This document shows positions 22,228-61,536 of a stretch of 64,000 nt of DNA, piece by piece. The translations under genes were made by a program, and so were the position numbers. Below the pieces are notes generated by a model that was given only the letters and a program-made list of their open reading frames with translations, was not told where the DNA came from and made no database searches. The DNA comes from an uncultured Planctomycetales bacterium (lineage in GTDB: Bacteria; Omnitrophota; Gorgyraeia; Gygaellales; Profunditerraquicolaceae). How positions within the stretch are numbered: position 1 is the stretch's first letter; the number at the start of each line of letters is the position of its first letter. The stretch lies in assembly GCA_964603585.1 (NCBI GenBank), contig CAZRVK010000004.1:64438-128437 (forward strand), given 5' to 3'.

Positions 22228-22229
22228 GG

Positions 22230-24397: not shown

Positions 24398-24418
24398 TAA
24401 ACAGGAGAGTCTGCGGTC

Positions 24419-25120: not shown

Positions 25121-25140
25121 CTAAATGGGATCATTATAAA

Positions 25141-25995: not shown

Positions 25996-26021
25996 ATGTT
26001 ATTCTAAACAGGAAATATTGT

Positions 26022-43755: not shown

Positions 43756-44329
43756 TACCATAGGAAAAAAATTGTCAAAAATCAGGCTGGATTATGTATA
43801 TCCGTATATTAAAGGCAGATTGTTAGACATAGGATGTGGAAATAATGCCTTAGTAGGCAGGTATAAGAACGGTATTGGGATTGACACTTATGATTGGGGT
43901 GGCGCGGATATCCTGGTCAAGGATTCTTCATGTCTAGAATTCAATAATCGTGAATTTGACACAATCACTATTATTGCAGCTTTAAACCATATCCCGAACC
44001 GCAAAGAAGTATTGCTTGAATGTAACCGCCTATTAGCCGATGACGGCAGGCTCATTATAACGATGATTTCTCCTATGATAGGATTTATTTGGCATAAATT
44101 GCGTTATCCGTGGGACGCAGACCAGCGTATAAGGAAAATGAAAACAGATGAGGCTTATGGTTTATCAAAACGGTATATTTTGGCACTTGCGGACTCGCAG
44201 GGTTTTGTTTTGGAAACAAACAAACGGTTTATGCTGGGTTTAAATACAATGTATATATTCAGGAAAAAACTTTATCTTAAAGGACCAAAAATAGTTAAGA
44301 TTGTAAAATCAAGCCGGAGGATGGGATGA
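43748..44329 (+). CDS. Class I SAM-dependent methyltransferase (Methyltransf_11-like)
   Basis: RLLDIGCGNNALVGRY motif I; FDTITIIAALNHIPN; LLADDGRLIIT. Confidence 0.5.
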   Translation: MNDTIGKKLSKIRLDYVYPYIKGRLLDIGCGNNALVGRYKNGIGIDTYDWGGADILVKDSSCLEFNNREFDTITIIAALNHIPNRKEVLLECNRLLADDGRLIITMISPMIGFIWHKLRYPWDADQRIRKMKTDEAYGLSKRYILALADSQGFVLETNKRFMLGLNTMYIFRKKLYLKGPKIVKIVKSSRRMG

Positions 44330-45255: not shown

Positions 45256-45271
45256 TTTCGAAGGTTCTACA

Positions 45272-47550: not shown

Positions 47551-48785
47551 TGCGTATTTTACTATTAACTCAATGGTTTAATCCCGAACTTTGTTTTAAA
47601 GGCGTGCCATTTGCACAAGAATTGGTCAAATTGGGACATGAGGTGCAAGTCTTAACCGGATTTCCTAATTATCCGGGAGGAAGGGTTTATCCGGGATATA
47701 AAATAAAATTGTTTCAACATGAAATCCTGGATGGGATACCGGTTTTTCGAGTCCCTTTATACCCCAGCCATGATAGTAAAGTGCTAAAGCGCATTGCCAA
47801 TTACGCAAGTTTTGCATTATCTGCGGTTTTTTTAGGCGCCTGGAGGGTAAAAAGGCCGGATATAATTTATGTTTATCATCCGCCAGCAACCATTGGTTTA
47901 CCCGCTATATTCCTGCATTTGTTACATCGAGCACCTTTTGTCTATGATATCCAGGATTTATGGCCGGATACCTTACCGGCAACCGGAATGATGAAAAACC
48001 GCATCCTTATCTGGTTAATTGAGAAATGGTGTCAGTTTATATATTGGAAAGCAGCCAAGATAGTTGTTTTATCACCGGGATTCAAGGATGTATTGGTTAA
48101 AAGAGGGGTTTTGGAACGTAAAATAGAAGTAATCTATAACTGGTGTGAGGAAGCCCACTTAAAAACGATAAAAAAAGATGAGGCCTTAGCGAGAAAACTG
48201 GGAATTGCCGGTAAGTTTAATTTGGTATTTGCCGGGACTATGGGAAGTGCTCAAGCCCTCGGTTCAGTTTTGGATGCGGCAGGCTTAGTACAAGATAAAT
48301 TCCCCGATATACAGTTTGTCTTTGTAGGAGGAGGAATAGATGTTGAAAGGCTTAAGGATAAGAAAACCGAGAAGAATCTAAATAATGTTTGTTTTCTCCC
48401 TTGGCGTCCGATGAGCGAAATCGGAAGTATCCTTGGATTAGCAGATGTGCTTTTTGTGCATTTAAAAGATGATCCTCTTTTTCAGATCACAATACCGGGA
48501 AAAACGCAGGCTTATATGGCAGCCGGTCGTCCTATCTTAATGGCGGTTAAAGGAAATGCCGCTGCGTTGATTGAAAAATCTGGGGCTGGTTTGACTTGCA
48601 TCCCGCAAGATCCAGACGATATCGCGCGAAAGATAGAAGAGTTGTATAAAATGCCCCGAAACCGTCTTGAGCTTATGGGGGAAAATGGCAAGATCTTTTA
48701 TGAGCGGTACTTATCTCTTTCTGTTGGGGCAAGACGCTTTGAAAAAGTATTTCAATCAGTAGTAAATCCGGGAAGGAGAAAATAA
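47547..48785 (+). CDS. Family 4 glycosyltransferase (WbuB/WcaI-like)
   Basis: MMRILLLTQWFNPE..GFPNYPGGRVYPGY, the typical WbuB-like N-terminus, and a C-terminal GT-B nucleotide-binding domain. Confidence 0.7.
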   Translation: MMRILLLTQWFNPELCFKGVPFAQELVKLGHEVQVLTGFPNYPGGRVYPGYKIKLFQHEILDGIPVFRVPLYPSHDSKVLKRIANYASFALSAVFLGAWRVKRPDIIYVYHPPATIGLPAIFLHLLHRAPFVYDIQDLWPDTLPATGMMKNRILIWLIEKWCQFIYWKAAKIVVLSPGFKDVLVKRGVLERKIEVIYNWCEEAHLKTIKKDEALARKLGIAGKFNLVFAGTMGSAQALGSVLDAAGLVQDKFPDIQFVFVGGGIDVERLKDKKTEKNLNNVCFLPWRPMSEIGSILGLADVLFVHLKDDPLFQITIPGKTQAYMAAGRPILMAVKGNAAALIEKSGAGLTCIPQDPDDIARKIEELYKMPRNRLELMGENGKIFYERYLSLSVGARRFEKVFQSVVNPGRRK

Positions 48786-48789
48786 ATAA

Positions 48790-49440
48790 TTGAATCAATT
48801 ACTGGATTCCAAAAGAAATTATGAATGGCTGAAGAGGGTTTTTGACCTGGTTTTTGCGTCTTTTTTGATCATTGTTCTTTCCCCTTTTTTCTTGCTAATT
48901 TGTTTTTTGGTATGGGTAGAAGTTGGTACCCCTGTATTTTTTAGGCAGCTTCGTCCCGGTAAAGATGAGAGACCGTTTACAATTATCAAATTCCGGACTA
49001 TGACCAATGCACGCAATAAAGATGGATTTTTGCTTGCGGAAACAGAAAGGCTTCGGCCTTTAGGGCGTTTTTTGCGGAAATTTAGCCTTGACGAACTCCC
49101 TGAATTGCTAAATGTTCTTATGGGACAGATGAGTTTTGTCGGCCCTCGCCCATTACTTATGCAATATTTGGGGTATTATACTCCTTTACAGGCCAGGCGG
49201 CATGCTGTTAAACCCGGTATTACAGGATGGGCACAAATTCATGGGCGTAATAATACTCCGTTCAGTAAAAGGTTTGAGATGGATGTTTGGTATGTGGATA
49301 ATCGTTCGTTTCCCCTGGATCTGAAAATACTCATTCTTACTATTATTAAGGTCTTTAAACGTGAAGGGGTTAGGGATGATCTTGGGTATTGTTATAAACA
49401 GGTTAATGATTGCGGCTTGCCAAATGATATTATAGAATAA
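48790..49440 (+). CDS. Small polyprenyl-phosphate hexose-1-phosphate transferase (bacterial sugar transferase family, PglC/WbaP C-domain type): the initiating phosphoglycosyltransferase
   Basis: Single N-terminal TM, then PVFFRQLRPGKDERPFTIIKFRTM and DELPELLNVLMGQMSFVGPRP. TTG start as in the track. Confidence 0.8.
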   Translation: MNQLLDSKRNYEWLKRVFDLVFASFLIIVLSPFFLLICFLVWVEVGTPVFFRQLRPGKDERPFTIIKFRTMTNARNKDGFLLAETERLRPLGRFLRKFSLDELPELLNVLMGQMSFVGPRPLLMQYLGYYTPLQARRHAVKPGITGWAQIHGRNNTPFSKRFEMDVWYVDNRSFPLDLKILILTIIKVFKREGVRDDLGYCYKQVNDCGLPNDIIE

Positions 49441-49468
49441 GATCCTGCTCTTCCTTCCTTTCTATTAG

Positions 49469-49497
49469 TTGACAAACCTTTGATAACTTGCTAAACT
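49469..49497 (+). promoter_or_regulatory. Internal sigma70-like promoter candidate (TTGACA, 17 nt spacer, TAAACT) ahead of the GNAT gene
   Basis: ttgaca at 49469-49474 and taaact at 49492-49497, followed by SD ggagg at 49516-49520 and the ATG at 49526. Lies in a 75-nt intergenic gap. Confidence 0.35.
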
Positions 49498-49525
49498 GAA
49501 AAAAACTAGTCTATTGGAGGAAACG

Positions 49526-50131
49526 ATGATCAGAGGGAAAAAGATTGTTCTGCGGCCTCTTGAAGAAGATGATTTGGATTTCTGCCAAAGCCTTTATAAC
49601 GATCCACATATCCGGAACATGGTGGTAGGCTGGGATTTCCCGGTTTCAAAGAAAAAGCAAAAGATATGGTTTGATTCTTTACTTAACGATAAGTTTAATG
49701 TTCGGTTTATTGTTGAGTCAAAGGATGCCGGTTTGATCGGTTTGACCGGGTTTTGGGATATTGATTGGCATAATAGAAACGCTTTGATGGCGGTAAAACT
49801 TTTGACTGCAAGGAAAACAAAAGGGAAGGGTTATGGCAGGGATGTAATTATGACTATGTCCGCTTTTGCATTTTTTAATATGGGACTGCATAAATTATGG
49901 TGTGAAATACTGGATTATAATGTTCCTTCACTTAAGTGCTATGTAGAAAAAAGCGGCTGGAAGATAGAAGGAAAGTTACGGAAGCACATTTTTCGAAACG
50001 GGTTGTTTCACGACCTTTATTATCTCGGTTGTTTAAAAGAAGATTTCCTGGCTATTGCTGATTCCAGTGAGTATGTACCTCCGGGTGTACCCGCAGGTAT
50101 GAAGAGAGTCAACCGAGAAATCCGGCTGTAA
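49526..50131 (+). CDS. GNAT-family N-acetyltransferase
   Basis: MIRGKKIVLRPLEEDDLDFCQSLYNDP (RimL-like N-terminus) and acetyl-CoA site RKTKGKGYGRDVIM. The ATG at 49526 is preferred over the track TTG at 49514. Confidence 0.7.
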   Translation: MIRGKKIVLRPLEEDDLDFCQSLYNDPHIRNMVVGWDFPVSKKKQKIWFDSLLNDKFNVRFIVESKDAGLIGLTGFWDIDWHNRNALMAVKLLTARKTKGKGYGRDVIMTMSAFAFFNMGLHKLWCEILDYNVPSLKCYVEKSGWKIEGKLRKHIFRNGLFHDLYYLGCLKEDFLAIADSSEYVPPGVPAGMKRVNREIRL

Positions 50132-50208
50132 TTGTCTTATCCTGGATAACTTGTTTTATCCAATAACGAAATAGCGTCTTCATAAAATTTAATCTGCGCA
50201 AGGCTATT

Positions 50209-51279
50209 GTGGCTAACGAAACAAAATCAACTGAAATCGGCAGTGAATTTGATTGGCCAGGATTACTGGAAGGGCCTTTTTTGCCATGGAGCAGTCCTTT
50301 CTTATTTATGGCCTTAGGGCGTGATGCTATTCCACTTTTATTTAAGAAAACAAGAAAATATTCCCGGACTGTATTTATTCCAGATTATTTCTGCCATGAA
50401 GTAAGTTTGTATTGGAAAAAGAATGGCATAAAAATACGCTATTATCAGGATGATCCGCGCTGGGTACAGCCTGATTGGGGATCATTATCTCCGAAACGCG
50501 GGGATTTTGTCTTGGCGGTAAATTATTTTGGCGTTAAAAATGGAATGGCTTGGCAAAGGTGGAAAAAGAATAATCCCGGGATCGTTTTGGTAGAGGATCA
50601 TTCGCATGACCCTTTATCTACCTGGGCCCGCAATTCAAACGCCGATTATGCCTTTGCTTCATTGAGAAAAACTTTTCCAGCTCCTGATGGAGCCATTTTG
50701 TGGTCGCCGCGGAAATTTCCTTTGCCTGCCGAGCCGGAAAACCGCAATTGTGCTGGAAGCGCTTTAAAACTTGCGGCCATGATTTGGAAGACCCAATATT
50801 TGAATTCTCAAAAGAACCTTCCATATCTTAAAGAAATCTATCGCAAATTACAGGTCGAAGGTGAAAGATATTTCTTAAAGAATACGGATTTACGTATATC
50901 TGATTGGAGCCGTTTTTTGCTTTTAAAAGGATTCCCTGCTTTTTGGAGAAAAAGCAGGGAAAAAAATGTGCGTTTATTGCTTCGATTGCTGGAATCAAAA
51001 GGGGATTTCGAGCCATTGTTCCAGGAGTGGCCAAAGGGGCATTGTCCGTTTAATTTAATATTGGTATTTAAAACGCATGCTTTGCGCGAAACTTTCCGGA
51101 GTGGCCTTATTCATCGAGGAATCTTTACCCCGGTTCATTGGCAGGGATCTGCCGGAGATCATCAGCACGTTATGGATTTAGCCTGCCGAATTTTAACCAT
51201 TCCTGTAGATCATAGGTACGGCAAGAAGGAAATGGGATTGATAGCTAAAACGATTTCCAAAATCACCAGATCAAAATGA
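50209..51279 (+). CDS. Divergent DegT/DnrJ/EryC1-like (fold-type I PLP) protein, shortened
   Basis: Weak similarity to sugar aminotransferases, including a Lys in ASLRKTFPAPDGAIL (compare FSFHxxKxL). Otherwise degenerate. Confidence 0.3.
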   Translation: MANETKSTEIGSEFDWPGLLEGPFLPWSSPFLFMALGRDAIPLLFKKTRKYSRTVFIPDYFCHEVSLYWKKNGIKIRYYQDDPRWVQPDWGSLSPKRGDFVLAVNYFGVKNGMAWQRWKKNNPGIVLVEDHSHDPLSTWARNSNADYAFASLRKTFPAPDGAILWSPRKFPLPAEPENRNCAGSALKLAAMIWKTQYLNSQKNLPYLKEIYRKLQVEGERYFLKNTDLRISDWSRFLLLKGFPAFWRKSREKNVRLLLRLLESKGDFEPLFQEWPKGHCPFNLILVFKTHALRETFRSGLIHRGIFTPVHWQGSAGDHQHVMDLACRILTIPVDHRYGKKEMGLIAKTISKITRSK

Positions 51280-52211
51280 CAATCAGTAAAAAACCCGATA
51301 TCCATGGGAATTTCTTCCGTCCAGCCCGGTTTTATCGAAATGCGCGTTCGGGATTTAAGGAATTTATGAGGGAATTCTTGAATGGCAGATCCGGGAAGGT
51401 ATTGCTTCCTGCATACATTGGATGGTCATCTAACGAAGGTTCTGGAGTATTTGACCCGGTAGCCGAACTTAAATTGGAATATGTTTTTTATAAGGTTACA
51501 GATGAACTGTATATAGATATGGAAGATGTATCCAGGTGTTTAAATAGAAATGATATTGCTTTAGCGGTAATCATTCATTATTTCGGGTATGTAGACCCTG
51601 CGTATGAAATTTTTATATCCGAGGCACGCAAGGCGGGGGTTGCAGTTGTTGAAGATGAAGCACATGCGATGCTTAGTGATTTGGTTGGCGGGGTTTGCGG
51701 CCGGTTGGCAGATGTATGCATATTTTCATTGCATAAATTACTGCCTTTTAGAAACGGAGGAATGCTGGTTTTTAATAATCCTGCGCGGGAGCTTCTAACA
51801 GGGATGCAACGTCAATCGCATGACATCCTATCTTATTTTGAGTATGATTTATTTGAGATTGCCAGAAGGCGAAGAGAAAACACGAATATATTTTTGGAAC
51901 AGCTTAAGGATTTTTCTGATGAAATCGATGTTTTACGTCCGGTTTTAAGAGAGGGAATAGTTCCACAAACACTTCCAGTAATCATGAAAAATGTGCCCAG
52001 GGACAGGCTCTACAATTTAATGAATTCCAAAGGTTACGGGGTGGTAAGTTTGTATCATACTTTGATCAAAGAGATAAAGACCGAAGAATTCCCTGTTTCG
52101 CATCTGCTGTCACGGAAGATCATTAACTTGCCGGTTCATCAGGATATCAACAAAGAACAGATTTGTGGTTTGTTAGATTGTCTTAAATCTTCTATTTATG
52201 ATTTAAGGTGA
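51276..52211 (+). CDS. Divergent DegT/DnrJ/EryC1-like protein (311 aa)
   Basis: VVEDEAHAMLS and CIFSLHKLLPFRNGGML resemble the DegT D-x-A-H and FSFH-K blocks. Confidence 0.35.
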   Translation: MTISKKPDIHGNFFRPARFYRNARSGFKEFMREFLNGRSGKVLLPAYIGWSSNEGSGVFDPVAELKLEYVFYKVTDELYIDMEDVSRCLNRNDIALAVIIHYFGYVDPAYEIFISEARKAGVAVVEDEAHAMLSDLVGGVCGRLADVCIFSLHKLLPFRNGGMLVFNNPARELLTGMQRQSHDILSYFEYDLFEIARRRRENTNIFLEQLKDFSDEIDVLRPVLREGIVPQTLPVIMKNVPRDRLYNLMNSKGYGVVSLYHTLIKEIKTEEFPVSHLLSRKIINLPVHQDINKEQICGLLDCLKSSIYDLR

Positions 52212-53323
52212 TAAAAACCGATAATGTTTTAATGCAAACGAAAATAGTGCAAAATCCTGGTTTTGAGATCTTAGGATCAGCAAATGAGCTGGAAAAGAAG
52301 AAATGGCTGGATATCTGGTTGTCTTGGCCGGAAAAAGATATCTTTGCACATCCTGAATATTTAGGCATATTCGAAACAAGGGATGAGCGGGCTTTCGCCG
52401 CGGTTTATTCTGCAGATAGAGCGACTATCCTGTATCCTTTTTTAAAACGGAGTTTTAATTCTTTATCCTGGATTTCTGATGGTTTTCGGGAGTGCTTCGA
52501 TATAGCTTCTCCGTATGGTTATGGCGGAGCTTATTATTGGGGTGATCCCGCGCTTAAGACCGCAGTTTCGGGTTTTTTCTGGACGGCCTATAATGAATGG
52601 CTAAGAATCAATCAATGTATCAGTGAATTTACAAGGTTTCATCTTTTTGAACAGGATTTAGCAGTTTATCCAGGAGAAAAAGTGTTGCGGGGTAAGAATG
52701 TTGTGCGGTCTCTTTATTTATCTAAAGATGAGATATGGATGGATTTTGAACATAAAGTCCGTAAGAATATAAAAAAGTCGGAAAGATCCGGTTTAAAATG
52801 TTTACTTGATGAGCATGGCAAGTATCTGGAAGAGTTTATAAAAATATATGAAAGTACGATGCACCGGCGTAAGGCGAGAGGATTTTATTTCTTTGACCGG
52901 AGTTTTTTCGAATCTATATCCCGGCGTTTACCCCGGAACAGTATTTTCTTTCATGTCTTGGACGGTAATAAGATTGTTTCTACGGAGTTAGTACTTTTTT
53001 CCAAGAATACAGCTTATTCGTTTTTAGGCGGGACTTTGGAAGACGCTTTTGACAAGCGGCCCAATGAGCTGCTTAAATATACAGTGATCTCCTGGGCAAA
53101 AGATCAAGGGATATCTAATTATGTGTTGGGAGGAGGATATAATCCTGAAGATGGGGTTTACCGCTATAAGCTGTCTTTTGCTCCAGGGGGAGAGTATCCT
53201 TTTTATACCGGTCAGAGGATTATTGATGAAGATAAATTCAATGATGTGATCAGCATAAGAAGACATAGTTCGAAAAAAAAATGGGAACCGGAAAAGGGGT
53301 ATTTTCCGCCATACCGCTCATGA
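52208..53323 (+). CDS. FemAB-like / Acetyltransf_6 (BioF2-like) family protein, possible aminoacyl or acyl transferase acting on the glycan
   Basis: Size and segments (..ILYPFLKRS.., ..KNIKKSERSGLK.., ..LLKYTVISWAKDQGISNYVLGGG..) are typical of FemAB-fold GNAT proteins found in EPS loci. GTG start at 52208 (alternative ATG at 52232). Confidence 0.35.
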   Translation: MIKTDNVLMQTKIVQNPGFEILGSANELEKKKWLDIWLSWPEKDIFAHPEYLGIFETRDERAFAAVYSADRATILYPFLKRSFNSLSWISDGFRECFDIASPYGYGGAYYWGDPALKTAVSGFFWTAYNEWLRINQCISEFTRFHLFEQDLAVYPGEKVLRGKNVVRSLYLSKDEIWMDFEHKVRKNIKKSERSGLKCLLDEHGKYLEEFIKIYESTMHRRKARGFYFFDRSFFESISRRLPRNSIFFHVLDGNKIVSTELVLFSKNTAYSFLGGTLEDAFDKRPNELLKYTVISWAKDQGISNYVLGGGYNPEDGVYRYKLSFAPGGEYPFYTGQRIIDEDKFNDVISIRRHSSKKKWEPEKGYFPPYRS

Positions 53324-53366
53324 TATTTGGCTTTACGGTTTATAACCGAAAATTTATTATTTTAAA

Positions 53367-54518
53367 ATGTTAAAACGGATCTTACTTTCTCCTCCCCATA
53401 TGGGCACAGAGGAAATGAAATTCATCCGGGAGGCGTTTAAAAGCAACTATATTGTTCCTCTTGGTCCGCAAGTAGATGCTTTTGAAAAAGAAGTGGCCGA
53501 ATATATTGGGATACCATATACCTTGGCGCTTTCTAGCGGGACCGCTGCTATTCATTTGGCAATGCGTCTTCTGGGCGTAGGAATAAACGATGAAGTGATT
53601 GCTTCCACTTTGACTTTTATCGGTAGCGTTACGCCGGCGGTTTTTCAAGGAGCTAAACTTACCTTTGTGGATTGTGATCGTGTTTCCTGGAACATTTCCG
53701 CTGACCTTCTTGAAACCGCACTTAAAGATTCCAGAAATTGCGGAAGGACTGTTAAGGCGGTCATCCCAACCGATTTATATGGACAGTGTGCGGATTACAG
53801 AAAGATACTGGCAGTTTCTAAAAAGTACGGTGTTCCGGTGGTGATAGATGCGGCCGAAGCGATGGGGGCACGATATCATAATGTTCATGCTGGTGTCGGG
53901 GGAGATGCCGCGGTATTTTCGTTCAACGGGAACAAGATCATTACTACCTCTGGGGGAGGGATACTCGCTTCAAAGGATAAAGATTTCATTGAACATGCAC
54001 GTAAACTTTCTCAACAAGCACGCGAAGCATTCCCTTACTATGAACATTCAGAAATAGGATATAACTATCGATTAAGTAATATTTTAGCCGCGATTGGTCG
54101 CGGACAACTAAGGGTACTAAATAGACGGTTAAAGAGAAAAAAAGAAATTTTCGATTATTATAAAAAGTCGCTGTCGGGCTTGCCTGGGATCGAGTTCATT
54201 CCCGAATCACCTTATGGTGAATCTAATCATTGGTTAACAGTTATCCTGATTACCAAAGAAAGTTTTGGGGTTGATCGGGAAACACTGCGACTGGCCTTGG
54301 AAAAGGCAAATGTGGAATCACGCCCGGTTTGGAAACCGATGCATCTGCAACCAGTGTTTCAGGGAAAAAGCCGGGTGTTTGGCGGCGAAGTGGCAGAAGA
54401 CCTGTTTTGCAGGGGTTTATGCCTGCCTTCGGGAACCGCATTGACGAATGCCGATCTAAACCGCATAATCGACATAATCGTGCAATGTCACCGGCATCAT
54501 CGAGAATGCAGTTATTAG
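53367..54518 (+). CDS. DegT/DnrJ/EryC1/StrS-family sugar aminotransferase (PglE/PseC/WbpE-like)
   Basis: PPHMGTEEMKFIREAF, ALSSGTAAIHLAM, DAAEAMG, FSFNGNKIITTSGGG (PLP Lys). Confidence 0.85.
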   Translation: MLKRILLSPPHMGTEEMKFIREAFKSNYIVPLGPQVDAFEKEVAEYIGIPYTLALSSGTAAIHLAMRLLGVGINDEVIASTLTFIGSVTPAVFQGAKLTFVDCDRVSWNISADLLETALKDSRNCGRTVKAVIPTDLYGQCADYRKILAVSKKYGVPVVIDAAEAMGARYHNVHAGVGGDAAVFSFNGNKIITTSGGGILASKDKDFIEHARKLSQQAREAFPYYEHSEIGYNYRLSNILAAIGRGQLRVLNRRLKRKKEIFDYYKKSLSGLPGIEFIPESPYGESNHWLTVILITKESFGVDRETLRLALEKANVESRPVWKPMHLQPVFQGKSRVFGGEVAEDLFCRGLCLPSGTALTNADLNRIIDIIVQCHRHHRECSY

Positions 54519-54528
54519 AGTAAGCGCT

Positions 54529-56364
54529 ATGAAAACAGTCTACAAAATGCTTGTTTTAAAATATCGCCGTGTTTTGATTATTTTAACTAATTTATGTTTG
54601 GTTTCATTTTCCTATTATGTCAGTTTTTTGCTGCGCTTCGATTCTAATCTTCCGAACGATTATTTTAAGATCTTTCTTAAAACCCTGCCTTTATTGATTA
54701 TCGTTAAAATCGTAGTTTTTTATTATTTTGGTTTATTCCGCGGTCTTTGGAGATATGTAAGTATATATGATCTGTGGCAGATAATAAAGGCCAATTTACT
54801 CGCCACAAGTGTTTTTATTCTTATCAATGTTTTTTCTTACGGGACACATATCGTCCCACGGTTTATAATCCTGAATGATTTCATTATCTGCACATCTTTC
54901 ATAGGCGGAATACGTTTCTTAACCCGACTGATACGAGAGCGATATAACCGTCCTCTTATTCAAAACGAACAGATTAATGTCCTTATTGTGGGTGCCGGTG
55001 AAGCCGGAATATTACTTTTAAAAGAATACCGTAATAATCCTGCTTTGGGGGAAGTAGTGGGTTTTATCGATGATGATAAAGTAAAATATAATGAATCCAT
55101 TAATGGTGTAAAGATCTTAGGGGATAGGAAATCGATTTCAAAGGTTGCCAGGGATTATAATGTCAAGGAAATCATCTTAGCAATTCCTTCGGCAAACGGG
55201 ATCATCATCAGGGATTTGATTACATATTGCCAGGTCCCTAATGTCAAGTTAAAGATAATCCCGGGAATGTCTAAGATCTTGAGCGGAGAACTCGAAATAG
55301 GCTTGAGAGAAGTAAGACCAGAGGATCTTTTAGGCAGGGAAACGGTTAATATTAACGAAAGTGAAATAGGCGGGTATTTGAAGGAAAAGGTGATTTTAGT
55401 TACTGGCGCCGCTGGTTCTATTGGTTCCGAATTATGCCGTCAGATCGCAATATTTTCTCCAAAAGCGATCATTTTGATCGATCATAATGAAAATAACCTC
55501 TATTTTTTGAATATAGAACTTAGAGCCAGATTTAAGAGATTGCAGATAAGATTGGTCATTGGTGATATTAATGATATAGGTTTATTAAAAGAGGTTTTTT
55601 CCACCTATAGACCACAGGTAGTTTTCCATGCGGCGGCATATAAACATGTTCCTCTTATGGAGGAAAACCCGATTGCCGCCTTCAAAAATAACGTTTTAGG
55701 AAGTAGATCCTTGATTTATGCCTCGCATCACTATAATGTAGAGAAGTTTGTTTTAATTTCGACTGATAAAGCAGTTAACCCGATCAATATCATGGGAATA
55801 AGTAAAAGATTTGCTGAAATGTTTCTACAGGCAAAGTCAAAGCGAAGCAGAACCAAATTTATGGCTGTTCGTTTCGGCAATGTTTTAGGGTCTGATGGCA
55901 GTGTTGTCCCATTATTTAAAAAACAGATCGATGCCGGCGGGCCGATAACTATAACTCATCCGGAGACAACCCGCTATTTTATGAGTATAAAAGAAGCTGT
56001 TTTGTTGGTCCTTCAAGCCGGTGCGATCGGAAACGGGGGAGAAATATTCATTTTGGATATGGGGGAGCAAATAAAAATAGTGGATTTAGCCAGGAATTTA
56101 GTAACATTATCCGGGTTGGAGTTAGGCAAGGATATTATGGTAGAATATATAGGCTTACGCCCTGGAGAGAAAATCCGAGAGGAGTTATTGCTGGATAAAG
56201 ATAGAGATAAAATCACGAAACATGATAAGATTTATATCAGCAAAGCGGATGATTTTGATCTGCAAATGCTAAGGCAGCAAATTAAAGAACTTAAGAAAAT
56301 AGCTTCCCTAAAAGATGCCCCGGCCATTGTCCAAAAAATGAAGGAGATTATTGCCCCAAAATGA
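54529..56364 (+). CDS. Membrane-anchored UDP-N-acetylhexosamine 4,6-dehydratase (PglF/CapD/WbpM family)
   Basis: Four N-terminal TM helices, then VILVTGAAGSIGSELCRQ, VFHAAAYKHVPLME, GTTRYFMSIKEAVLLVLQA. Confidence 0.85.
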   Translation: MKTVYKMLVLKYRRVLIILTNLCLVSFSYYVSFLLRFDSNLPNDYFKIFLKTLPLLIIVKIVVFYYFGLFRGLWRYVSIYDLWQIIKANLLATSVFILINVFSYGTHIVPRFIILNDFIICTSFIGGIRFLTRLIRERYNRPLIQNEQINVLIVGAGEAGILLLKEYRNNPALGEVVGFIDDDKVKYNESINGVKILGDRKSISKVARDYNVKEIILAIPSANGIIIRDLITYCQVPNVKLKIIPGMSKILSGELEIGLREVRPEDLLGRETVNINESEIGGYLKEKVILVTGAAGSIGSELCRQIAIFSPKAIILIDHNENNLYFLNIELRARFKRLQIRLVIGDINDIGLLKEVFSTYRPQVVFHAAAYKHVPLMEENPIAAFKNNVLGSRSLIYASHHYNVEKFVLISTDKAVNPINIMGISKRFAEMFLQAKSKRSRTKFMAVRFGNVLGSDGSVVPLFKKQIDAGGPITITHPETTRYFMSIKEAVLLVLQAGAIGNGGEIFILDMGEQIKIVDLARNLVTLSGLELGKDIMVEYIGLRPGEKIREELLLDKDRDKITKHDKIYISKADDFDLQMLRQQIKELKKIASLKDAPAIVQKMKEIIAPK

Positions 56365-57599
56365 TATCCGGGATAACTAAAGCTCTTAATTTCCTGCTAT
56401 TGCTTGATTTTTCTTTTTTCCTTGTGATTGCCCCGTATTCCAAGATAGCCGTTAAAATTGTTTTATATGTCGCATTGTTCCTTGGAACGCTGCTAATTAT
56501 AATGAATTCTTACGGGGTTTTTTACAAAAAGGATACGATTTGCAGGGAATTCTTTAGAGGCTTTATCCCCAGGAACCCTGTAAGCAAGGCTACCTTGTTC
56601 TTTTTGTCCATTGCCTTGGTTGCGGCAGGGACAAGCATTAATTTTCTGCACAGTCAGCGTATTTTTTTCGAACGTTATCTCCCATATTTGCTGTTTTTTG
56701 CCTTTGGGGTTTATTCGGCTAAATCCCGGAATGTCCCTTTTATACTGACGGTTATCTTCTTTATTAATATCATTGTTTTCAGCCTGGGGATATCGATCGA
56801 TCATTTGAAATCGCCAGATATTCGGATTTCTACTTCCTTTGGCCGTTCATTGAATTTATCAAATTACTTGATCCTGGCGGCTCCTTTCAGCTCAATAGTT
56901 TTTGTTTTTACAAAGAGCCGTATTTTGCGGATCTGTGGGTTTTTTACTGCTTTTTTATCTTCGATCTCTTTAATCTGGATTGAATCCAGAGCTGGGTGGT
57001 TAGCTGTACCGATCGCAACTTTGCTTGTTTGTTTCCGCCGTAATATCAAAGCCGGTTTCCTTCTTACGGTGATCCTGGTTGTTGCCGCTAATTTCCTCGG
57101 ACCGGTATATAAAATCCGTGCATTAACAACCTTTGATGTTTCCAGTTGGAGCCGAATTGAGTTATATGAGACAGCGTTGCGAATATTTAAAAGTTACCCT
57201 GTATTAGGTTCTGGTCCAGGGATGTATGAGAAACTTGTAAATAGTGTAGAATTTCGGCCGATTAATGGATATTTGGGGCAGGTGGTTCATCCCCATGCCC
57301 ATAATACTTATTTAGAAATTCTTTCGGAAATGGGGATTGTGGGCTTAATTGGTTTTTCGAGTATTTTTATTGCTTTCTTTAGTTTTTTGTTCAAATCTAA
57401 GAAAATTTGGGATGAAACAGTGGGTGAACAAAGCGTTTTACTGATTGGGATATCCGGATCAATTTTGGCAACGTTGATCTTTGCTTTGGCGTCGACGATT
57501 ATCACAGTGGGAATGCAGGATGCCCCAGTTTTTTGGTTCCTGTTTGGGATTGCCAGCGGGTTATTGCCACCGTTTTTTATTGATAAGCGTTCCGTTTAG
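56361..57599 (+). CDS. Wzy_C-domain protein: O-antigen ligase (WaaL) family, which also includes PglL-type O-oligosaccharyltransferases
   Basis: Multi-TM with the Wzy_C signature loop HPHAHNTYLEILSEMGIVGLIGF. Confidence 0.6.
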   Translation: MISGITKALNFLLLLDFSFFLVIAPYSKIAVKIVLYVALFLGTLLIIMNSYGVFYKKDTICREFFRGFIPRNPVSKATLFFLSIALVAAGTSINFLHSQRIFFERYLPYLLFFAFGVYSAKSRNVPFILTVIFFINIIVFSLGISIDHLKSPDIRISTSFGRSLNLSNYLILAAPFSSIVFVFTKSRILRICGFFTAFLSSISLIWIESRAGWLAVPIATLLVCFRRNIKAGFLLTVILVVAANFLGPVYKIRALTTFDVSSWSRIELYETALRIFKSYPVLGSGPGMYEKLVNSVEFRPINGYLGQVVHPHAHNTYLEILSEMGIVGLIGFSSIFIAFFSFLFKSKKIWDETVGEQSVLLIGISGSILATLIFALASTIITVGMQDAPVFWFLFGIASGLLPPFFIDKRSV

Positions 57600-57629
57600 G
57601 TATTCGGTTCATTTCTTTGGGGATATTAA

Positions 57630-59906
57630 ATGATAAGGGAAATAATGCAATCGAATAAAAGGCGGCTTGAGCCGCCTTTTTTGCTCGTTGCCGGGATTAC
57701 CGGCTTTGCTGGTGTCGTGGCCCAGGTTTTGCTTTTACGTGAGATGTTAGTCAGTTTCTTAGGCAATGAATTTATCTGGAGCTTGATCTTGGCAAATTGG
57801 GTGATCTTAGAAGCCGCAGGGGTTTTTATCTTTGGAAAGATCATCGATGACAGGCGAAATTACGCCAATTTGTTCATTACCTTGCAAATGATGTTTTCAC
57901 TATTCTTGCTGTTTTCCATTTTCCTTACCCGATCATTTAAGAGTGTTTTGGGATTCGGTTTTGGTGAAAATATCGGGCTACTCCTTGTTTTCCTTTCATC
58001 ATTACTGCTGATTTTTCCGGTTAGTTTTTGCCATGGAGCTTTGTTTAGTTTGCTCTGTAAAATGGCGGATAACGTCGAGAAAGTTTATGCCTGGGAAATT
58101 ATCGGAAGCGCATGCTCCGGCATCCTAGTTACCTTTCTTTTTGTCCCGTATTTTTCCTGCTTTGAGATCGCTTTTGGGGTAGCATTCATAAATTTTGCTT
58201 TATGTTTTTTCTTTTTTTTTCAGGTTAGAAGTTTCTTGAAATACGTGTTCCTGTTTTCTTTGTTTTTCTTGATCGTGTTTTCTTCTTTTGGAGGGACCAA
58301 GATCTTGGAGGATGTTTCTTTAGAACAACGCTGGGGCAGCCAACAAGTCCTGGAATCTCAAAGCTCCGTTTACGGGGACATTACAGTTACTACCCGGAAC
58401 AAGCAATTAACTGTTTTTTATAATGGGACACCGAGTATTTTATCACCATATCCGGATATGGCTTTTATCCAGGATTTTGTGCATCTGCCACTGCTTTTTC
58501 AGGTTAATCCAAAACGGCTGCTTGTATTAGGTTCAGGAGCAGGGGGGGTGATCCATGAAGCCTTAAAGCATCCTTTACAGCGAATTGATTATGCGGAACT
58601 TGACCCTTTAATCCTGAAAGTCCTCAAGAAGCATGCGTCTGCGCTGATTAACAAGGAATTAAATGATCCGAGGGTTAAAATCAGCAATATTGATGGGCAT
58701 AGATTTTTAAGAAAGACTAACGATGAATATGACGTGATTTTGATCGGTTTGTCCAGACCTGCAGACCTTTCCTCAAATCGTTTCTTCACCCAGGATTTCT
58801 TTGTAATAGCAAAGCGGCATCTTTCGAAAAATGGAATTTTAGCTTTTACTCTGCCGGGATCGCCAACTTATATTGGCACGGATCTAAGAGACCTTAATGC
58901 CTGTATTTTGGCAGGACTTAGGAATGTGTTTGCCTTTATCAAGGTTATTCCTGGGGGATACAATTTGTTTTTAGCTTCGGATCATCGCGGGATCATGGAA
59001 CTCACGCCGGATTCGATATTACACCGGCTTGAGCAGCGGGAAGTCCGTACTGATATCATAAGCTTGAATTACTTGAAACATCGTCTGGATAGTGAAAAAC
59101 AATTATGGTTTTTGAAGTCCCTCAAGGATCATACGAAAAAAATAAATAGGGATTTCGAGCCTTTCGCGGTTTTTATAAACGTTTTGATTTGGAATAGGAA
59201 GATGGGCGGTATGTTGGTGGAAGTTCTGGAGATAGCTAAAACCATAAAACCCGGTATAATCGCTTGGTTCTTAATTCTGCTTACTACAGGGTTTATTTTG
59301 GGGTGGCGTAAGAAACCAGATAGATTGAGATTAGGTATCGTTTATTGTATTTTTACCACGGGATTTTTCGGGATGCTGACAAATATAGTCTTGATATTTG
59401 TTTTTCAGGTTTTTTACGGAGTTATTTATTCCCATATCGGACTGCTTATCAGCAGCTTTATGGCAGGCGTTGCCATGGGAAGTTTTTGGATCAATCGTTT
59501 TGCCAACGCTTATAAGAATGATATGCGTCTATTCATCAGTCTTGAATACGGGGTAGTGATATCTATTTCAATTTTGACTTTCGTCTTGTTTCAGGCAGAT
59601 AAATCGCTGATTGGTTCATTTTGGTTTATTATTCCGGCTATTTTTATCCCAGGGGTACTGGTTGGCACGGAGTTTGCTTTATCCAGCCGAATATTCTTGC
59701 AAAACAACCAAAGAATTGGCCAGACGGTCGGATTGCTTTATAGCGCGGATCTATCTGGTACTTGGCTGGCTGGGATTATCGGGGGAGTGATTTTTCTGCC
59801 GGTTTTGGGTTTTTTTTATACATGTTTGTTAACAGTTATGTTAAAATTAAGCAGCTTGTTGATCTTGATTATTTTTAAATATAGGGGAGCAGTTGCACAA
59901 CAATAA
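57630..59906 (+). CDS. Polytopic membrane protein fused to a spermidine-synthase-like (aminopropyltransferase fold) domain
   Basis: N-terminal ~7 TM, central RLLVLGSGAGGVIHEALKHPLQRIDYAELDP...YDVILIGLSRPADLSSNRFFTQDFF (spermidine synthase-like SAM-fold), and C-terminal ~6 TM. Confidence 0.55.
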   Translation: MIREIMQSNKRRLEPPFLLVAGITGFAGVVAQVLLLREMLVSFLGNEFIWSLILANWVILEAAGVFIFGKIIDDRRNYANLFITLQMMFSLFLLFSIFLTRSFKSVLGFGFGENIGLLLVFLSSLLLIFPVSFCHGALFSLLCKMADNVEKVYAWEIIGSACSGILVTFLFVPYFSCFEIAFGVAFINFALCFFFFFQVRSFLKYVFLFSLFFLIVFSSFGGTKILEDVSLEQRWGSQQVLESQSSVYGDITVTTRNKQLTVFYNGTPSILSPYPDMAFIQDFVHLPLLFQVNPKRLLVLGSGAGGVIHEALKHPLQRIDYAELDPLILKVLKKHASALINKELNDPRVKISNIDGHRFLRKTNDEYDVILIGLSRPADLSSNRFFTQDFFVIAKRHLSKNGILAFTLPGSPTYIGTDLRDLNACILAGLRNVFAFIKVIPGGYNLFLASDHRGIMELTPDSILHRLEQREVRTDIISLNYLKHRLDSEKQLWFLKSLKDHTKKINRDFEPFAVFINVLIWNRKMGGMLVEVLEIAKTIKPGIIAWFLILLTTGFILGWRKKPDRLRLGIVYCIFTTGFFGMLTNIVLIFVFQVFYGVIYSHIGLLISSFMAGVAMGSFWINRFANAYKNDMRLFISLEYGVVISISILTFVLFQADKSLIGSFWFIIPAIFIPGVLVGTEFALSSRIFLQNNQRIGQTVGLLYSADLSGTWLAGIIGGVIFLPVLGFFYTCLLTVMLKLSSLLILIIFKYRGAVAQQ

Positions 59907-59917
59907 ACAGGTGAAAG

Positions 59918-61480
59918 ATGAAGACTTCGGTCGCAGTGGTTGGTGCCGGAAGATGGGGCAGTAATTTAGTGCGGAATTTTGCTGAATTAGGAATATTACG
60001 GACGATTTGTGATCTGGACCGGGAACTTTTATCAGGGTTTTTAAGCAAATATCCTAAAGTTGCCCTGACCGATTCTTATACAAATGTGTTGCAGGATAGA
60101 TCTATCGCGGGGGTAGTCATTGCCACTCCATCGGTTAAACATTATGAGATGGCTTTATCAGCGTTGATAGCAGGGAAACATGTTTTTGTAGAGAAACCAA
60201 TGTCTTTGGATGTATTGCAGGCGAAGGAATTGATCCTTTTGGCTGAAAAGAAAAAACTGGTATTGATGGTAGGGCATTTATTAGAATATCATCCCGCGGT
60301 AATTAAATTAAAGAAAATAATAGATTCTGGCGGTTTAGGCAAGATCAACTATATTTATTCTAACCGGCTTAATCTGGGTAAGGTGCGCAAGGAAGAAAAT
60401 ATTTTATGGAGTTTTGCCCCGCATGATATTTCAGTAGTGCGTATGCTTCTGGAAGAAGATCCAGTAGAAGTCACTGCGGTAGGCGCAAATTATTTAAGCC
60501 CGCAGCTATCAGATATTACGATCTCAACTTTAAGTTTTAAAAACGGGGTCAAGGCGCACATCTTTGTTAGTTGGCTGCATCCTTTCAAAGAACAAAGGCT
60601 GGTAGTAGTTGGGGACAAAAAAATGGCTGTTTTTGAAGATAGCGCAAAGGATAAATTAAAAATTTATGATCAAAGGTTTGTATGGAAGAACCGTGTCCCT
60701 GTCGCGCATACGAAAGGGCAGAAAGTAATAAGATTTGATTCGCGCGAACCTTTAAGGCTGGAATGCCTGCATTTTATAAAATGCATCCGCCAAGAGATCA
60801 CTCCAAAGACTGATGGTAAGAGTGGCCTGAAAGTCTTGGAAGTATTAAAAGCTTGCCAAAAATCATTGGAGAATAGAGGTACACCGGTAAGTTTATCGGA
60901 GTTAGTTCAAGATAAAGATTATTTTGTGCATCCAACGGCAATAGTCGATGATTTTTGTAAAATAGGTCAGGGGTGCAAAATTTGGCATTATTCGCATATT
61001 ATGCGTGGGGCATCCATTGGCCGAAATTGTTCGATAGGCCAAAATGTATATGTTGGATCAAAAGCGGTAATCGGCAATAATGTAAAAATACAAAACAACG
61101 TATCTATTTATGATGGTTTGGTTATAGAAGATAATGTTTTTTGCGGGCCATCCGCAGTTTTTACAAACGTTTTTACTCCCCGGAGTTTCATCGATAGACG
61201 GAATAAATTCCAACTGACGCGTCTATGTACGGGATCTTCCATAGGGGCAAATGCCACAGTGGTTTGTGGCAATAATATCGGCGCTTATGCCCTGGTCGGT
61301 GCTTCTGCTGTGGTTACAAAAAACATCCCTGACTATGCCCTGGTTTATGGCAATCCAGCAAGGATAAAAGGCTGGGTTTGCCAATGCGGGAATAAGTTGC
61401 GGTTTGTAAAGAAATCAGCAACTTGTAACGCATGTGGCAGGCATTATAAAAAAACCTCGAAGCAAGTAAGGATGATATGA
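59918..61480 (+). CDS. Bifunctional fusion of a Gfo/Idh/MocA NAD-dependent sugar oxidoreductase (WbpB-like) and a hexapeptide-repeat N-acetyltransferase (WbpD/PglD-like), with a C-terminal Cys4 zinc ribbon
   Basis: N-terminus SVAVVGAGRWGSNLVRNF...HVFVEKPM. C-terminus left-handed beta-helix repeats (IGQGCKIWHYSHIMRGASIGRNCSIGQNVYVGSKAVIGNNVKIQNNVSIYDG). Tail CQCGNK...CNACGRHY. Confidence 0.7.
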   Translation: MKTSVAVVGAGRWGSNLVRNFAELGILRTICDLDRELLSGFLSKYPKVALTDSYTNVLQDRSIAGVVIATPSVKHYEMALSALIAGKHVFVEKPMSLDVLQAKELILLAEKKKLVLMVGHLLEYHPAVIKLKKIIDSGGLGKINYIYSNRLNLGKVRKEENILWSFAPHDISVVRMLLEEDPVEVTAVGANYLSPQLSDITISTLSFKNGVKAHIFVSWLHPFKEQRLVVVGDKKMAVFEDSAKDKLKIYDQRFVWKNRVPVAHTKGQKVIRFDSREPLRLECLHFIKCIRQEITPKTDGKSGLKVLEVLKACQKSLENRGTPVSLSELVQDKDYFVHPTAIVDDFCKIGQGCKIWHYSHIMRGASIGRNCSIGQNVYVGSKAVIGNNVKIQNNVSIYDGLVIEDNVFCGPSAVFTNVFTPRSFIDRRNKFQLTRLCTGSSIGANATVVCGNNIGAYALVGASAVVTKNIPDYALVYGNPARIKGWVCQCGNKLRFVKKSATCNACGRHYKKTSKQVRMI

Positions 61481-61504
61481 TTAAAGTTATCAATGAGGTA
61501 TCTC

Positions 61505-61533
61505 TGCATTCTTAGAATGCAAACCTTTATTTT
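61505..61533 (+). terminator. Weak hairpin plus T-rich tract downstream of the fusion gene (possible attenuating terminator)
   Basis: tgcattc-tta-gaatgca (7 bp stem) followed by aacctttatttt. Confidence 0.2.
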
Positions 61534-61536
61534 CAA

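Follow-up and report, generated by a model that had tools for sequence, protein, structure and literature searches.

A conserved, probable starter-sugar cassette with a predicted FemX-like transferase at the 3' end of an Omnitrophota surface-polysaccharide island

The stretch of DNA described here (the window, 64,000 nucleotides of contig CAZRVK010000004.1, positions 64,438 to 128,437, in assembly GCA_964603585.1) comes from an uncultured bacterium that is named in GenBank as a member of the Planctomycetales and is placed by GTDB in the Omnitrophota, and homologues of the proteins in the region under study carry the name Candidatus Omnitrophota. The window is almost entirely one array of + strand genes, within which a polysaccharide island of about 50 kb extends from approximately 5.2 kb to 57.6 kb. 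The region under study is the 3' end of this Wzx/Wzy-type surface-polysaccharide island in an Omnitrophota genome, and our main subject is the series of genes at positions 47547-56364, which appear to make and load the first sugar of a glycan. A sequence-only reading of positions 48790-61480 had proposed a 3' sub-operon with its own promoter that encodes a pgl-like pathway for an N,N'-diacetylbacillosamine (diNAcBac)-type sugar, together with a Wzy_C protein. All ten open reading frames (ORFs) on which it drew were found where it had placed them, on the + strand. The features of the region are as follows.

47547..48785, + strand: GT4 glycosyltransferase, WcaI-like (Pfam Glyco_trans_4_4 and Glycos_transf_1)
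48790..49440, + strand: small monotopic phosphoglycosyltransferase (PGT), PglC-like, of the 'aromatic-box' class (PF02397 Bac_transf, 216 bits, residues 15-190)
49469..49497, + strand: sigma-70-like promoter candidate, TTGACA-17-(TGc)TAAACT (in an 85-nucleotide gap, TGn extended -10, 10/12 matches)
49526..50131, + strand: GNAT protein of the Acetyltransf_3 (RimJ/L, SpeG, PseH-like) type (Pfam)
50209..51279, + strand: DegT-related protein A, 356 amino acids (no Pfam hit; Asp...SLRK lysine motif kept)
51276..52211, + strand: DegT-related protein B, 311 amino acids, shortened (Pfam DegT, 49 bits, residues 61-170 only)
52208..53323, + strand: FemX-like double-GNAT transferase (Pfam Acetyltransf_6 and FemAB)
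53367..54518, + strand: PglE-like sugar 4-aminotransferase of the DegT family (DegT, 306 bits)
54529..56364, + strand: PglF/WbpM-like membrane-anchored UDP-GlcNAc 4,6-dehydratase (CoA_binding_3 and Polysacc_synt_2)
56361..57599, + strand: Wzy_C-family ligase, WaaL-like, 412 amino acids, about 12 transmembrane helices (PF04932, 75.9 bits)
57630..59906, + strand: protein with 14 predicted transmembrane helices and a degenerate spermidine-synthase-like domain, 758 amino acids (Spermine_synth, 82 bits)
59918..61480, + strand: fusion of a Gfo/Idh/MocA sugar 3-dehydrogenase (WbpB/WlbA-like) and an LbH 3-N-acetyltransferase (WbpD/WlbB-like) (Pfam)
61537..63999, + strand: STT3/PglB/AglB-family ORF, at least 821 amino acids, running off the window end (PF21436, 24.4 bits, cut-off 23)

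The extent of the functional unit was judged from gene order in other genomes. A metagenome scan found at least 356 loci with a relative of the FemX-like gene at 52208 (a 'Fem-like' gene), of which 80 were fetched, and the proteins of the window were run against these by tblastn. The neighbour counts that follow cover only the fetched loci with enough flanking DNA, and individual loci are cited by number (L054 and so on). The recurrent order is a GT4 gene of the 47547 type, a small PGT gene, a GNAT gene, one or both DegT-like genes (50209 type and 51276 type), the Fem-like gene, a PglE-like gene and a PglF-like gene. In 27 of 34 loci the Fem-like gene has a PGT gene no more than 3 kb upstream, a DegT-like gene of either type adjoins it in 25 of 34, and a GT4 homologue with 49-72% identity is found within 4.5 kb upstream in 21 of 34. 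On the other side, the PglE-like gene is downstream in 21 of 39 loci (adjacent in 19), as is the PglF-like gene in 10 of 25. Two Omnitrophota loci (L054 and L055) have the exact gene order of the window at 55-72% identity, and in L085, a locus without a 50209-type gene, a different GNAT gene precedes the 51276-type gene. The names of homologues span Acidobacteria, Armatimonadota, Longimicrobium, Firmicutes and Arthrobacter. Because this gene order recurs across loci, we take the functional unit to be 47547-56364 rather than 48790-61480. Judged by its conservation, this interval is one functional cassette, uncharacterised and retained far beyond the phylum.

Three enzymes of the cassette suggest which sugar is made. 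First, the best solved match of the PGT encoded by 48790 is Campylobacter PglC (8G1N, 193 bits, versus 115 bits for WbaP), to which it aligns without gaps over residues 12-196. The fingerprints of PGTs specific for UDP-diNAcBac are an aromatic box (Y118, Y122, W150, F154 and F197 in Campylobacter concisus), a GLLLP loop and some 14 extra residues at the C-terminus that PGTs with other substrates do not have (Anderson et al., 2023, PMC10186338). The catalytic domain of the class is about 200 residues long and has a single N-terminal re-entrant helix, and the Bac_transf match and gapless alignment of the 48790 product agree with this. Residues Y126, Y130, F158 and F162 of the 48790 product align with four of the five aromatic-box positions, and a 20-residue C-terminal tail follows the aligned core. 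The loop reads GNLLP or GKLLS in close relatives of this protein, and G[RE]LLP in many PGTs of the cassette. Among the 58 PGTs of the fetched loci, those linked to Fem-like and PglE-like genes keep the aromatic box, a GxLLP-like loop and the tail, and the PGTs of Omnitrophota islands that have no PglE or Fem partner (L003, L004, L005 and L134) have none of the box, loop or tail. These PGT features support a bacillosamine-type substrate. Second, the solved matches of the aminotransferase encoded by 53367 are led by Campylobacter jejuni PglE (1O61/4ZTC, 312-317 bits), with WbpE at 130 bits and PseC at 89 bits. Third, the dehydratase encoded by 54529 matches PglF best among solved structures (5BJU, 316 bits) and has the four to five N-terminal transmembrane segments of the PglF/WbpM architecture; its orthologues in L003, L004, L006 and L007 (58-61% identity) adjoin a Wzy_C gene. 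Taken together, these matches support a PglC/PglE/PglF-type route to a 2-acetamido-4-amino-2,4,6-trideoxyhexose starter sugar. The PglC-, PglE- and PglF-like calls made earlier from sequence have thus been borne out, in that the best solved relatives of the three proteins are Campylobacter PglC, PglE and PglF.

The cassette therefore shares with the Campylobacter pgl system a membrane-anchored PglF-type dehydratase, a PglE-type aminotransferase and a small PglC-type PGT, the last with its four aligned aromatic-box residues and C-terminal tail. It differs from that system in having no PglD, and in carrying a GNAT gene, two shortened DegT-like genes and a FemX-like gene between the PGT and PglE genes. 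In further contrast to pgl, it is accompanied by a Wzx-type flippase and by Wzz-like and Wzy candidates in an island of about 50 kb with nonulosonic-acid and radical S-adenosylmethionine (SAM) genes. Of the pgl-like diNAc-sugar pathway that the sequence-only reading had assigned to its 3' sub-operon, the PglC/PglE/PglF-type starter-sugar route is retained, whereas the third enzyme (PglD) and the module boundaries are not.

The cassette opens with the GT4 gene at 47547, whose product scores 171 bits against the NCBIfam WcaI family model, below its cut-off, and is probably the transferase for the second sugar. For the GNAT gene, the ATG at 49526, which follows GGAGG, is a more likely start than the TTG at 49514. 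The GNAT protein reaches 55.8 bits against the PseH model, below the cut-off of 93.1, and its best solved matches are of the SpeG type, with PseH itself (4RI1) matched only at E = 5e-4. The three genes that follow (50209, 51276 and 52208) had been skipped in the sequence-only reading and tell more about the region than any of the others. The products of 50209 and 51276 match each other by BLASTP at E = 2e-5, the Schiff-base lysine of 51276 aligns with that of 53367, and in several loci a homologue of 50209 is the gene just before the Fem-like gene. By these alignments, both appear to be shortened DegT relatives that have retained the pyridoxal phosphate lysine.

The product of 52208 has a very large family, to which 2,049 of the scored candidates belong at E <= 1e-10. 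An AlphaFold2 (AF2) model of the protein (predicted local distance difference test score 92.6) was compared with the PDB by Foldseek, and the eleven best matches (11/11) are all aminoacyl-tRNA-dependent transferases of the Fem type or the Sbb/Sba type. The top matches are Weissella viridescens FemX (template-modelling (TM) scores 0.69/0.76), Sbb17/Sba18 with streptothrisamine, and Staphylococcus aureus FemA and FemX, and the aminoacyl-phosphatidylglycerol synthase domains of MprF come next. The Sbb17/Sba18-type matches include enzymes that aminoacylate the amino sugar of streptothrisamine. Furthermore, a profile built from 16 family members matches FemX at E = 5.7e-13, and in the profile alignment the family-invariant K321 (YRYK) falls on Lys305 (YVFK) of W. 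viridescens FemX, described as the only reactive residue of that enzyme's active site (PMC12945691). There is also a precedent for the chemistry: Orf11 of BD-12 biosynthesis carries out the tRNA-dependent glycylation of a sugar amine (PMC12945691), and a sugar amine is likewise the substrate that we propose for 52208.

The likeness to FemX thus comprises the double-GNAT fold and the aligned Lys305, and FemX too acts on a UDP-linked substrate. In contrast, sequence identity between 52208 and the FemX-type enzymes is 12-15%, and the context of 52208 is a polysaccharide-initiation cassette. From the structural model we predict that 52208 is an aminoacyl-tRNA-dependent N-acylase of a 4-amino sugar. 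In most loci the PglE-like gene directly follows the Fem-like gene, and the most economical reading is therefore that the Fem-like protein would acylate the 4-amino group made by the PglE-like enzyme. Because 52208 has the fold and the catalytic lysine of aminoacyl-tRNA-dependent transferases, this 4-amino group is probably aminoacylated or otherwise acylated, rather than acetylated by a PglD. FemAB-like proteins of the Myxococcus spore coat, ExoG and ExoI, are said to offer a parallel.

A possible but doubtful alternative is that 52208 is an ordinary acyl-CoA-dependent N-acyltransferase, in which case it would yield a bacillosamine with a 4-N-acyl group such as acetyl, equivalent to diNAcBac. 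The protein does fall in the GNAT superfamily, with relatives named 'GNAT family N-acetyltransferase' or 'CelD/BcsL', and CoA-dependent tandem GNATs are also present among its Foldseek matches. However, these rank clearly lower than the Fem-type enzymes (TM scores of 0.38-0.46 versus 0.57-0.69), and an ordinary acyl-CoA enzyme fits poorly with the FemX profile match at E = 5.7e-13, with the equivalent of K305 that is invariant in the family, and with the separate GNAT that is always present in the cassette. We continue to favor the use of charged tRNA by 52208.

The sequence-only reading had also proposed that a TTGACA-17-TAAACT promoter marks the beginning of a 3' sub-operon. The string is indeed present at 49469-49497, before the GNAT gene, but it does not mark a module boundary: the cassette starts at the GT4 gene (47547) and spans the site. 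A generic sigma-70 scan of positions 44001-64000 gave 44 sites when 51.3 +/- 7.2 were expected, and for the exact pattern TTGACA-N16-18-TAnnnT the whole window has 3 occurrences where 1.99 would be expected, so the motif count alone is not above chance. Two of the three exact matches (7123-7150 and 49469-49497) are on the coding strand within the 1,466 nucleotides of intergenic DNA; shuffled intergenic sequence gave a mean of 0.027 and P(>=2) = 0.00035, for a pattern that was defined post hoc from the site itself. The site at 7123-7150, which is the only other intergenic match, reads TTGACA-N16-(TGt)TAGACT and lies directly upstream of the first island gene, which encodes a helix-turn-helix protein (7160). 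The two sites share the TGn extended -10 and a TA[AG]ACT hexamer. Relative to L054, the 49469 site falls in an insertion of about 70 nucleotides, and it is not conserved: the PGT and GNAT genes overlap in L054 and L052, and the 39-nucleotide gap of L055 lacks the motif. No terminator-like site was found before 49469 in the scan of 44001-64000. If active, 49469-49497 is plausibly a lineage-specific promoter internal to the cassette, not the start of a separate module.

At the other end of the region, the hexapeptide half of the 59918 product had been read as the PglD-like acetyltransferase of the pathway. This assignment fails, given that its best match is WlbB, that it has no PglD_N domain and that it would act at C3. 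The UDP-GlcNAc 3-dehydrogenase model is the best for the N-terminal half (172 bits), and the LbH half matches WlbB (3MQG) with 206 bits over residues 337-514, full length. No PglD occurs among the 60 best solved chains for this protein, PglD_N (PF17836) gives no hit to it, and TIGR03570 is reached with 92.7 bits, against a cut-off of 160.8, over the LbH core only. The closest known route is the WbpB/WbpE/WbpD (WlbA/C/B) pathway to 2,3-diacetamido-2,3-dideoxy sugars, of which 59918 combines a 3-dehydrogenase-like half and a WlbB-like acetyltransferase half. It differs from that route in that the activities are fused, that neither a WbpE-type aminotransferase nor a WbpA dehydrogenase is encoded nearby, and that the gene lies past 57630. 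An orthologue in L004 (67% identity) likewise has no aminotransferase nearby. By these matches, 59918 would hold steps 1 and 3 of a WbpB/WbpE/WbpD-type 2,3-diacetamido route in one chain, and would belong to a separate pathway. We also considered a GnnA-like enzyme of lipid A biosynthesis, which is not favored; the fused LbH half is strongly WlbB-like. This case makes clear that it is unsafe to call any hexapeptide protein beside PglE and PglF a PglD.

The gene between the ligase and 59918, at 57630, likewise appears to lie outside the pathway. Canonical SpeE proteins carry the motifs GGGDGG, for decarboxylated SAM, and DSTDP, which is catalytic, and in the 57630 product these are degenerate (GSGAGG and GLSRPAD, respectively). 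Relatives with 42-54% identity occur in more than 120 Omnitrophota clusters, and the homologue in L133 lies upstream of pgk, where there is no island. Because the gene is conserved across the Omnitrophota and stays beside pgk without an island, we assign 57630 to the backbone of Omnitrophota genomes and consider a part in the pathway improbable. The 3' end of the pathway module, which in the sequence-only reading included 57630, was consequently drawn too far, as the gene is present even in a locus with no glycan island (L133). A role for this SpeE-like protein as a partner of the ligase, to which it is adjacent in L004, L008 and L134, was rejected on the grounds that L133 keeps the gene without the island and that the catalytic motifs are degenerate.

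The same comparisons define the site of the island. The 5' end of the window holds housekeeping genes (the C-terminus of priA, fmt, two galT-like genes and gap). In L133 the order is fmt, two galT-like genes, gap, a few small genes, the SpeE-like gene, pgk, tpi and secG, with no island, and L134 and L004 carry different islands that each end just before the SpeE-like gene. The island site is thus fixed between gap and the SpeE-like/pgk/tpi/secG genes (3938-4990 and 57630-59906 in the window), and the content is wholly different between Omnitrophota genomes. Because L133 has no island whereas L134 and L004 have different ones, we regard the interval from gap to pgk as a hotspot for a variable glycan island.

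The last ORF of the window, at 61537, belongs to the STT3 family. In a six-frame check, a reading frame stays open from 61516 up to the end of the window, and its ATG at 61537 lies 56 nucleotides after gene 59918; Rfam and repeat scans of 61400-64000 gave no match, and the stretch is simply coding. A phmmer search with the product returned 1,386 cluster representatives that align end-to-end and are typically 820-860 amino acids long, the closest named relatives being Omnitrophota STT3-domain proteins, and PF02516 (STT3) hits 34 of 35 aligned family members. The motifs and their roles have been defined for STT3 as DXD in external loops 1 and 2 (EL1 and EL2), TIXE in EL5, WWDYG for Ser/Thr binding, and DGGK (PMC8342417). 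In 61537 the corresponding motifs are D116-G-D118 (DGD), D222-T-D224 (YDTD) and T354-V-A-E357 (TVAE), and D118 (the Asp of EL1), D222 and D224 (the DxD of EL2) and E357 (the Glu of TIXE) do not vary across an alignment of 134 sequences. The protein has WWSPG for WWDYG and NGGT for DGGK, and the consensus of this STT3-like family is WWPPGHF (WW[PS]PG) and DG[AG]T. Because both WWDYG and DGGK are replaced, the acceptor of 61537 is unlikely to be a classical N-X-S/T sequon.

Besides the conserved acidic residues, 61537 shares with PglB, AglB and STT3 its multiple transmembrane helices and soluble C-terminal domain. Its differences extend beyond the acceptor motifs to length, about 845 amino acids as opposed to roughly 710 for PglB, and to context, which is pilus- or T2SS (type II secretion system)-like elsewhere in the Omnitrophota. 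In an Omnitrophica relative (L136, 10001-12550; L137, 3662-6211), a 31%-identical STT3 member lies inside a cluster that resembles T2SS or type IV pilus loci (T2SSE, T2SSF, pseudopilins, PilM/N and T2SSK), beside a divergent small GT2 gene and a DUF2304 gene. This context hints at the glycosylation of a pilin or pseudopilin from a polyprenyl-phosphate sugar.

The sequence-only reading had remarked that N-linked protein glycosylation might be encoded here, and an STT3-family gene directly downstream does lend something to that remark, although its acceptor motifs argue against the classical sequon. One version of the idea would make the whole island a pgl-like N-glycosylation system, in which the glycan is handed to 61537, and 56361 serves lipopolysaccharide (LPS) or is redundant. 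We consider this unlikely. The gene does begin 56 nucleotides after 59918, keeps the invariant EL1 Asp, EL2 DxD and TIXE Glu, and lies near PglC-, PglE- and PglF-like genes as in Campylobacter. Yet the substitution of WW[PS]PG and NGGT for WWDYG and DGGK speaks against it, no STT3-like gene is present at the equivalent position in L004, L133 or L134, and the GT2 and DUF2304 genes beside the 31%-identical member hint at a polyprenyl-monophosphate donor rather than the island glycan.

The Wzy_C-family protein encoded by 56361 had been read as either a WaaL ligase or a PglL-type O-oligosaccharyltransferase, on account of its HPHAHNTYLE loop. The loop is present at residues 310-319, and the gene overlaps the PglF-like gene. 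The only PDB match of the protein, by sequence or by structure, is WaaL of Cupriavidus metallidurans (7TPG; E = 3e-6; Foldseek TM score 0.62, probability 1.0). Residues R210, R265, H312 and H314 are invariant in 15 family sequences; two of them, R265 and H314, fall on R265 and H313 in the 7TPG chain. The two proteins are also alike in length (about 412 versus 413 amino acids), in their approximately 12 transmembrane helices, and in the alignment of R265 and the H-x-H loop. In contrast to 7TPG, with which its identity is about 16%, 56361 matches no curated WaaL model and is encoded inside a variable glycan island. Islands with different glycosyltransferases and initiating enzymes (L003, L004, L005 and L134) carry orthologues with 50-56% identity at their 3' end. 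One of these loci, L005, has a gene of the GT9 heptosyltransferase family, and a cassette reported from Omnitrophota combines heptosyltransferase II with an O-antigen ligase and an LPS exporter; both lend indirect support to LPS as the acceptor. The homology and the structural model suggest that 56361 is a WaaL-like ligase, for which the conserved acceptor is most likely lipid A-core.

It seems quite unlikely that 56361 is instead a protein O-oligosaccharyltransferase that acts on Ser/Thr of pilins or other periplasmic proteins. The conserved Arg/Arg/His set is common to WaaL and PglL, and pglL genes lie outside LPS loci (PMC3643930). Because these residues are common to both, the HPHAHNTYLE loop does not discriminate between them, and the HxHAHN loop with its Arg/Arg/His partners is as compatible with an O-oligosaccharyltransferase as are three other observations: type IVa pili are nearly universal in Omnitrophota, the 56361 family is confined to that phylum and reaches no curated WaaL model, and the best NCBIfam match is 'putative O-glycosylation ligase, exosortase A-associated' (40.6 bits, cut-off 188). 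However, neither PglL_A (PF15864) nor Wzy_C_2 gave a hit in any of the 15 family members (15/15 without a hit), even at E <= 10. PglS has a C-terminal periplasmic domain, at residues 438-548, whereas in the AF2 model of 56361 (predicted TM score 0.83) the last helix occupies residues 388-401 of 412 and no C-terminal periplasmic domain follows. Furthermore, 56361 lies in a polysaccharide locus with Wzx and Wzz-like genes, contrary to the published criterion for pglL. No pilin gene was found in the window, and no pilin or other target gene is adjacent to 56361. Thus, the gene, its loop and the likeness to WaaL stand as first described, and the PglL-type option is disfavored on account of the missing domains and the surrounding locus. 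At the 5' edge of the island, 5224-6222 encodes a repeat-rich lipocalin-like protein, a homologue of which directly follows the Wzy_C gene in L007 (3916-4941); it was considered as a glycoprotein target and rejected, as it has no signal peptide.

The remainder of the island provides the setting for the WaaL-like ligase and the starter-sugar cassette. Identical proteins are also present on Logan contigs from SRR15237810/11. The features with a likely part in glycan assembly are the following.

7519-8553: Wzz-like protein (PF02706, E = 0.0019, weak)
17950: Wzx flippase
37718-39028 and 40261-41409: two polytopic ORFs without family hits

By its weak Pfam match, 7519 is a probable Wzz-like co-polymerase. 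The island further holds methyltransferases, an MBOAT protein, several glycosyltransferases and two NeuB-type blocks. The first block (8537-17932) is of unusual make-up, with Gmd, a reductase, a short NeuB without the SAF domain, a cytidylyltransferase, a class-IV aminotransferase, a SPASM radical-SAM enzyme, two B12-radical-SAM enzymes and a methyltransferase. The second (19483-27916) is of the legionaminic-acid type and encodes LegB (471 bits, cut-off 475), a CBS-nucleotidyltransferase (PtmE-like), a formyltransferase-like protein, NeuB, a NeuC-type epimerase and a CMP-transferase, in addition to HisF/HisH-like proteins and a WbuX amidotransferase (361 bits; WbuX/Y/Z). In all, four B12-binding radical-SAM enzymes are encoded in this one island (14098, 15652, 34302 and 41187), and the relatives L004 and L005 also carry such genes, which suggests C-methylation or other radical chemistry on sugars.

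The second block bears on the role of the starter-sugar enzymes. No aminotransferase is encoded within 19483-27916, and 53367 is the only LegC-like protein in the window, the LegC family being its top NCBIfam model (340 bits). It could be argued that 53367 and 54529 mainly feed nonulosonic-acid synthesis, with 53367 as the missing aminotransferase of the legionaminic block; Escherichia coli O161 makes 5-N-acetyl-7-N-alanyl-legionaminic acid (Leg5Ac7Ala) by means of a dehydratase, an aminotransferase and an 'alanyltransferase'. We judge this improbable. The LegC score is below the cut-off of 420, the two genes travel with PGT and GT4 genes in dozens of loci from many phyla, and the PGT of 48790 bears a bacillosamine-type signature. 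Moreover, LegB and PtmE point to a GDP route, unlike the PglF/WbpM architecture, which is specific for UDP-GlcNAc.

That 56361 is the O-unit polymerase (Wzy) and not a ligase is very improbable: Pfam Wzy_C does cover many Wzy polymerases and no other island ORF reaches a Wzy model, but polymerases are unit-specific whereas 56361 orthologues sit in islands with different glycosyltransferase sets and initiating enzymes, which makes this role unlikely, L005 has a second, shorter Wzy_C gene, and the window offers the other polytopic ORFs at 37718, with a weak Wzy_C-like FDNAYLE motif, and 40261. On the strength of that motif, 37718 is our best candidate for the Wzy of the island.

The explanation that we favor overall, and hold with somewhat better than even confidence from homology and models, is a bacillosamine-type initiation cassette in which a FemX-like step replaces PglD, and which feeds a WaaL-like ligase at the 3' end of the island. 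By homology to the solved Campylobacter enzymes, the PglF-like 54529 would convert UDP-GlcNAc to the 4-keto-6-deoxy sugar, and the PglE-like 53367 would convert this to the UDP-4-amino sugar. Fold, catalytic lysine and gene order suggest that the FemX-like 52208 then acylates the 4-amine, most likely with an amino acid from aminoacyl-tRNA, and that the GNAT encoded by 49526 probably caps the new alpha-amine, with the DegT-like proteins 50209 and 51276 in auxiliary roles. The PglC-like 48790 would load the sugar phosphate onto undecaprenyl phosphate, and the GT4 enzyme 47547 would add the next sugar. The upstream glycosyltransferases, Wzx (17950), the candidate Wzy (37718) and the Wzz-like protein (7519) may act next, after which the WaaL-like 56361 would pass the undecaprenyl-pyrophosphate-linked glycan on to a conserved acceptor, for which lipid A-core is the likeliest candidate.

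Several observations weigh against this scheme. First, the searchable literature holds no characterised polysaccharide example of the cassette. Second, the PGT matches the published fingerprint only in part: its GLLLP loop is degenerate (GFLLA), and the fifth box position lies in the C-terminal tail, which does not align, with Y200 or Y202 as candidates. On these two counts, strict membership of 48790 in the diNAcBac class is not established. Third, stereochemistry at C4, which distinguishes bacillosamine from 2-acetamido-4-amino-2,4,6-trideoxygalactose (FucNAc4N), is not readable from the sequence. Fourth, some relatives of 52208 are annotated as 'CelD/BcsL acetyltransferase', so that use of an acyl-CoA donor is possible. 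Fifth, the legionaminic-type block has no aminotransferase and the top model for 53367 is LegC, as noted above. Finally, genes for lipid A or core are missing from the window, many Omnitrophota have type IV pili, and the Arg/Arg/His set of the ligase is common to PglL.

For the Omnitrophota, these comparisons describe a glycan island whose content is hypervariable and whose position between gap and pgk is fixed, with a conserved WaaL-like ligase. The downstream gene has a separate significance, in that a large STT3 clade without the sequon-binding WWDYG motif bears on the reach of bacterial protein N-glycosylation. We can propose only tentatively, and regard as a somewhat doubtful generalization, that the 4-amino group of a UDP-bacillosamine-type sugar undergoes tRNA-dependent aminoacylation at hundreds of loci in many phyla, always with an aromatic-box PGT and a GT4 enzyme, and that the resulting glycan is shared here by a WaaL-like ligase and a WW(S/P)PG STT3 protein. 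To our knowledge, a link of this kind to charged tRNA has so far been documented only for peptidoglycan, membrane lipids and a few antibiotics. N-aminoacyl 4-amino-6-deoxy sugars are known chemically in O-antigens, and the proposed pathway, if true, would account for how they are made. It would also provide a new pair of PGT and substrate for glycoengineering, and it would mean that in many uncultured and soil lineages the translation machinery, in the form of charged tRNA, builds the first sugar of surface glycans.

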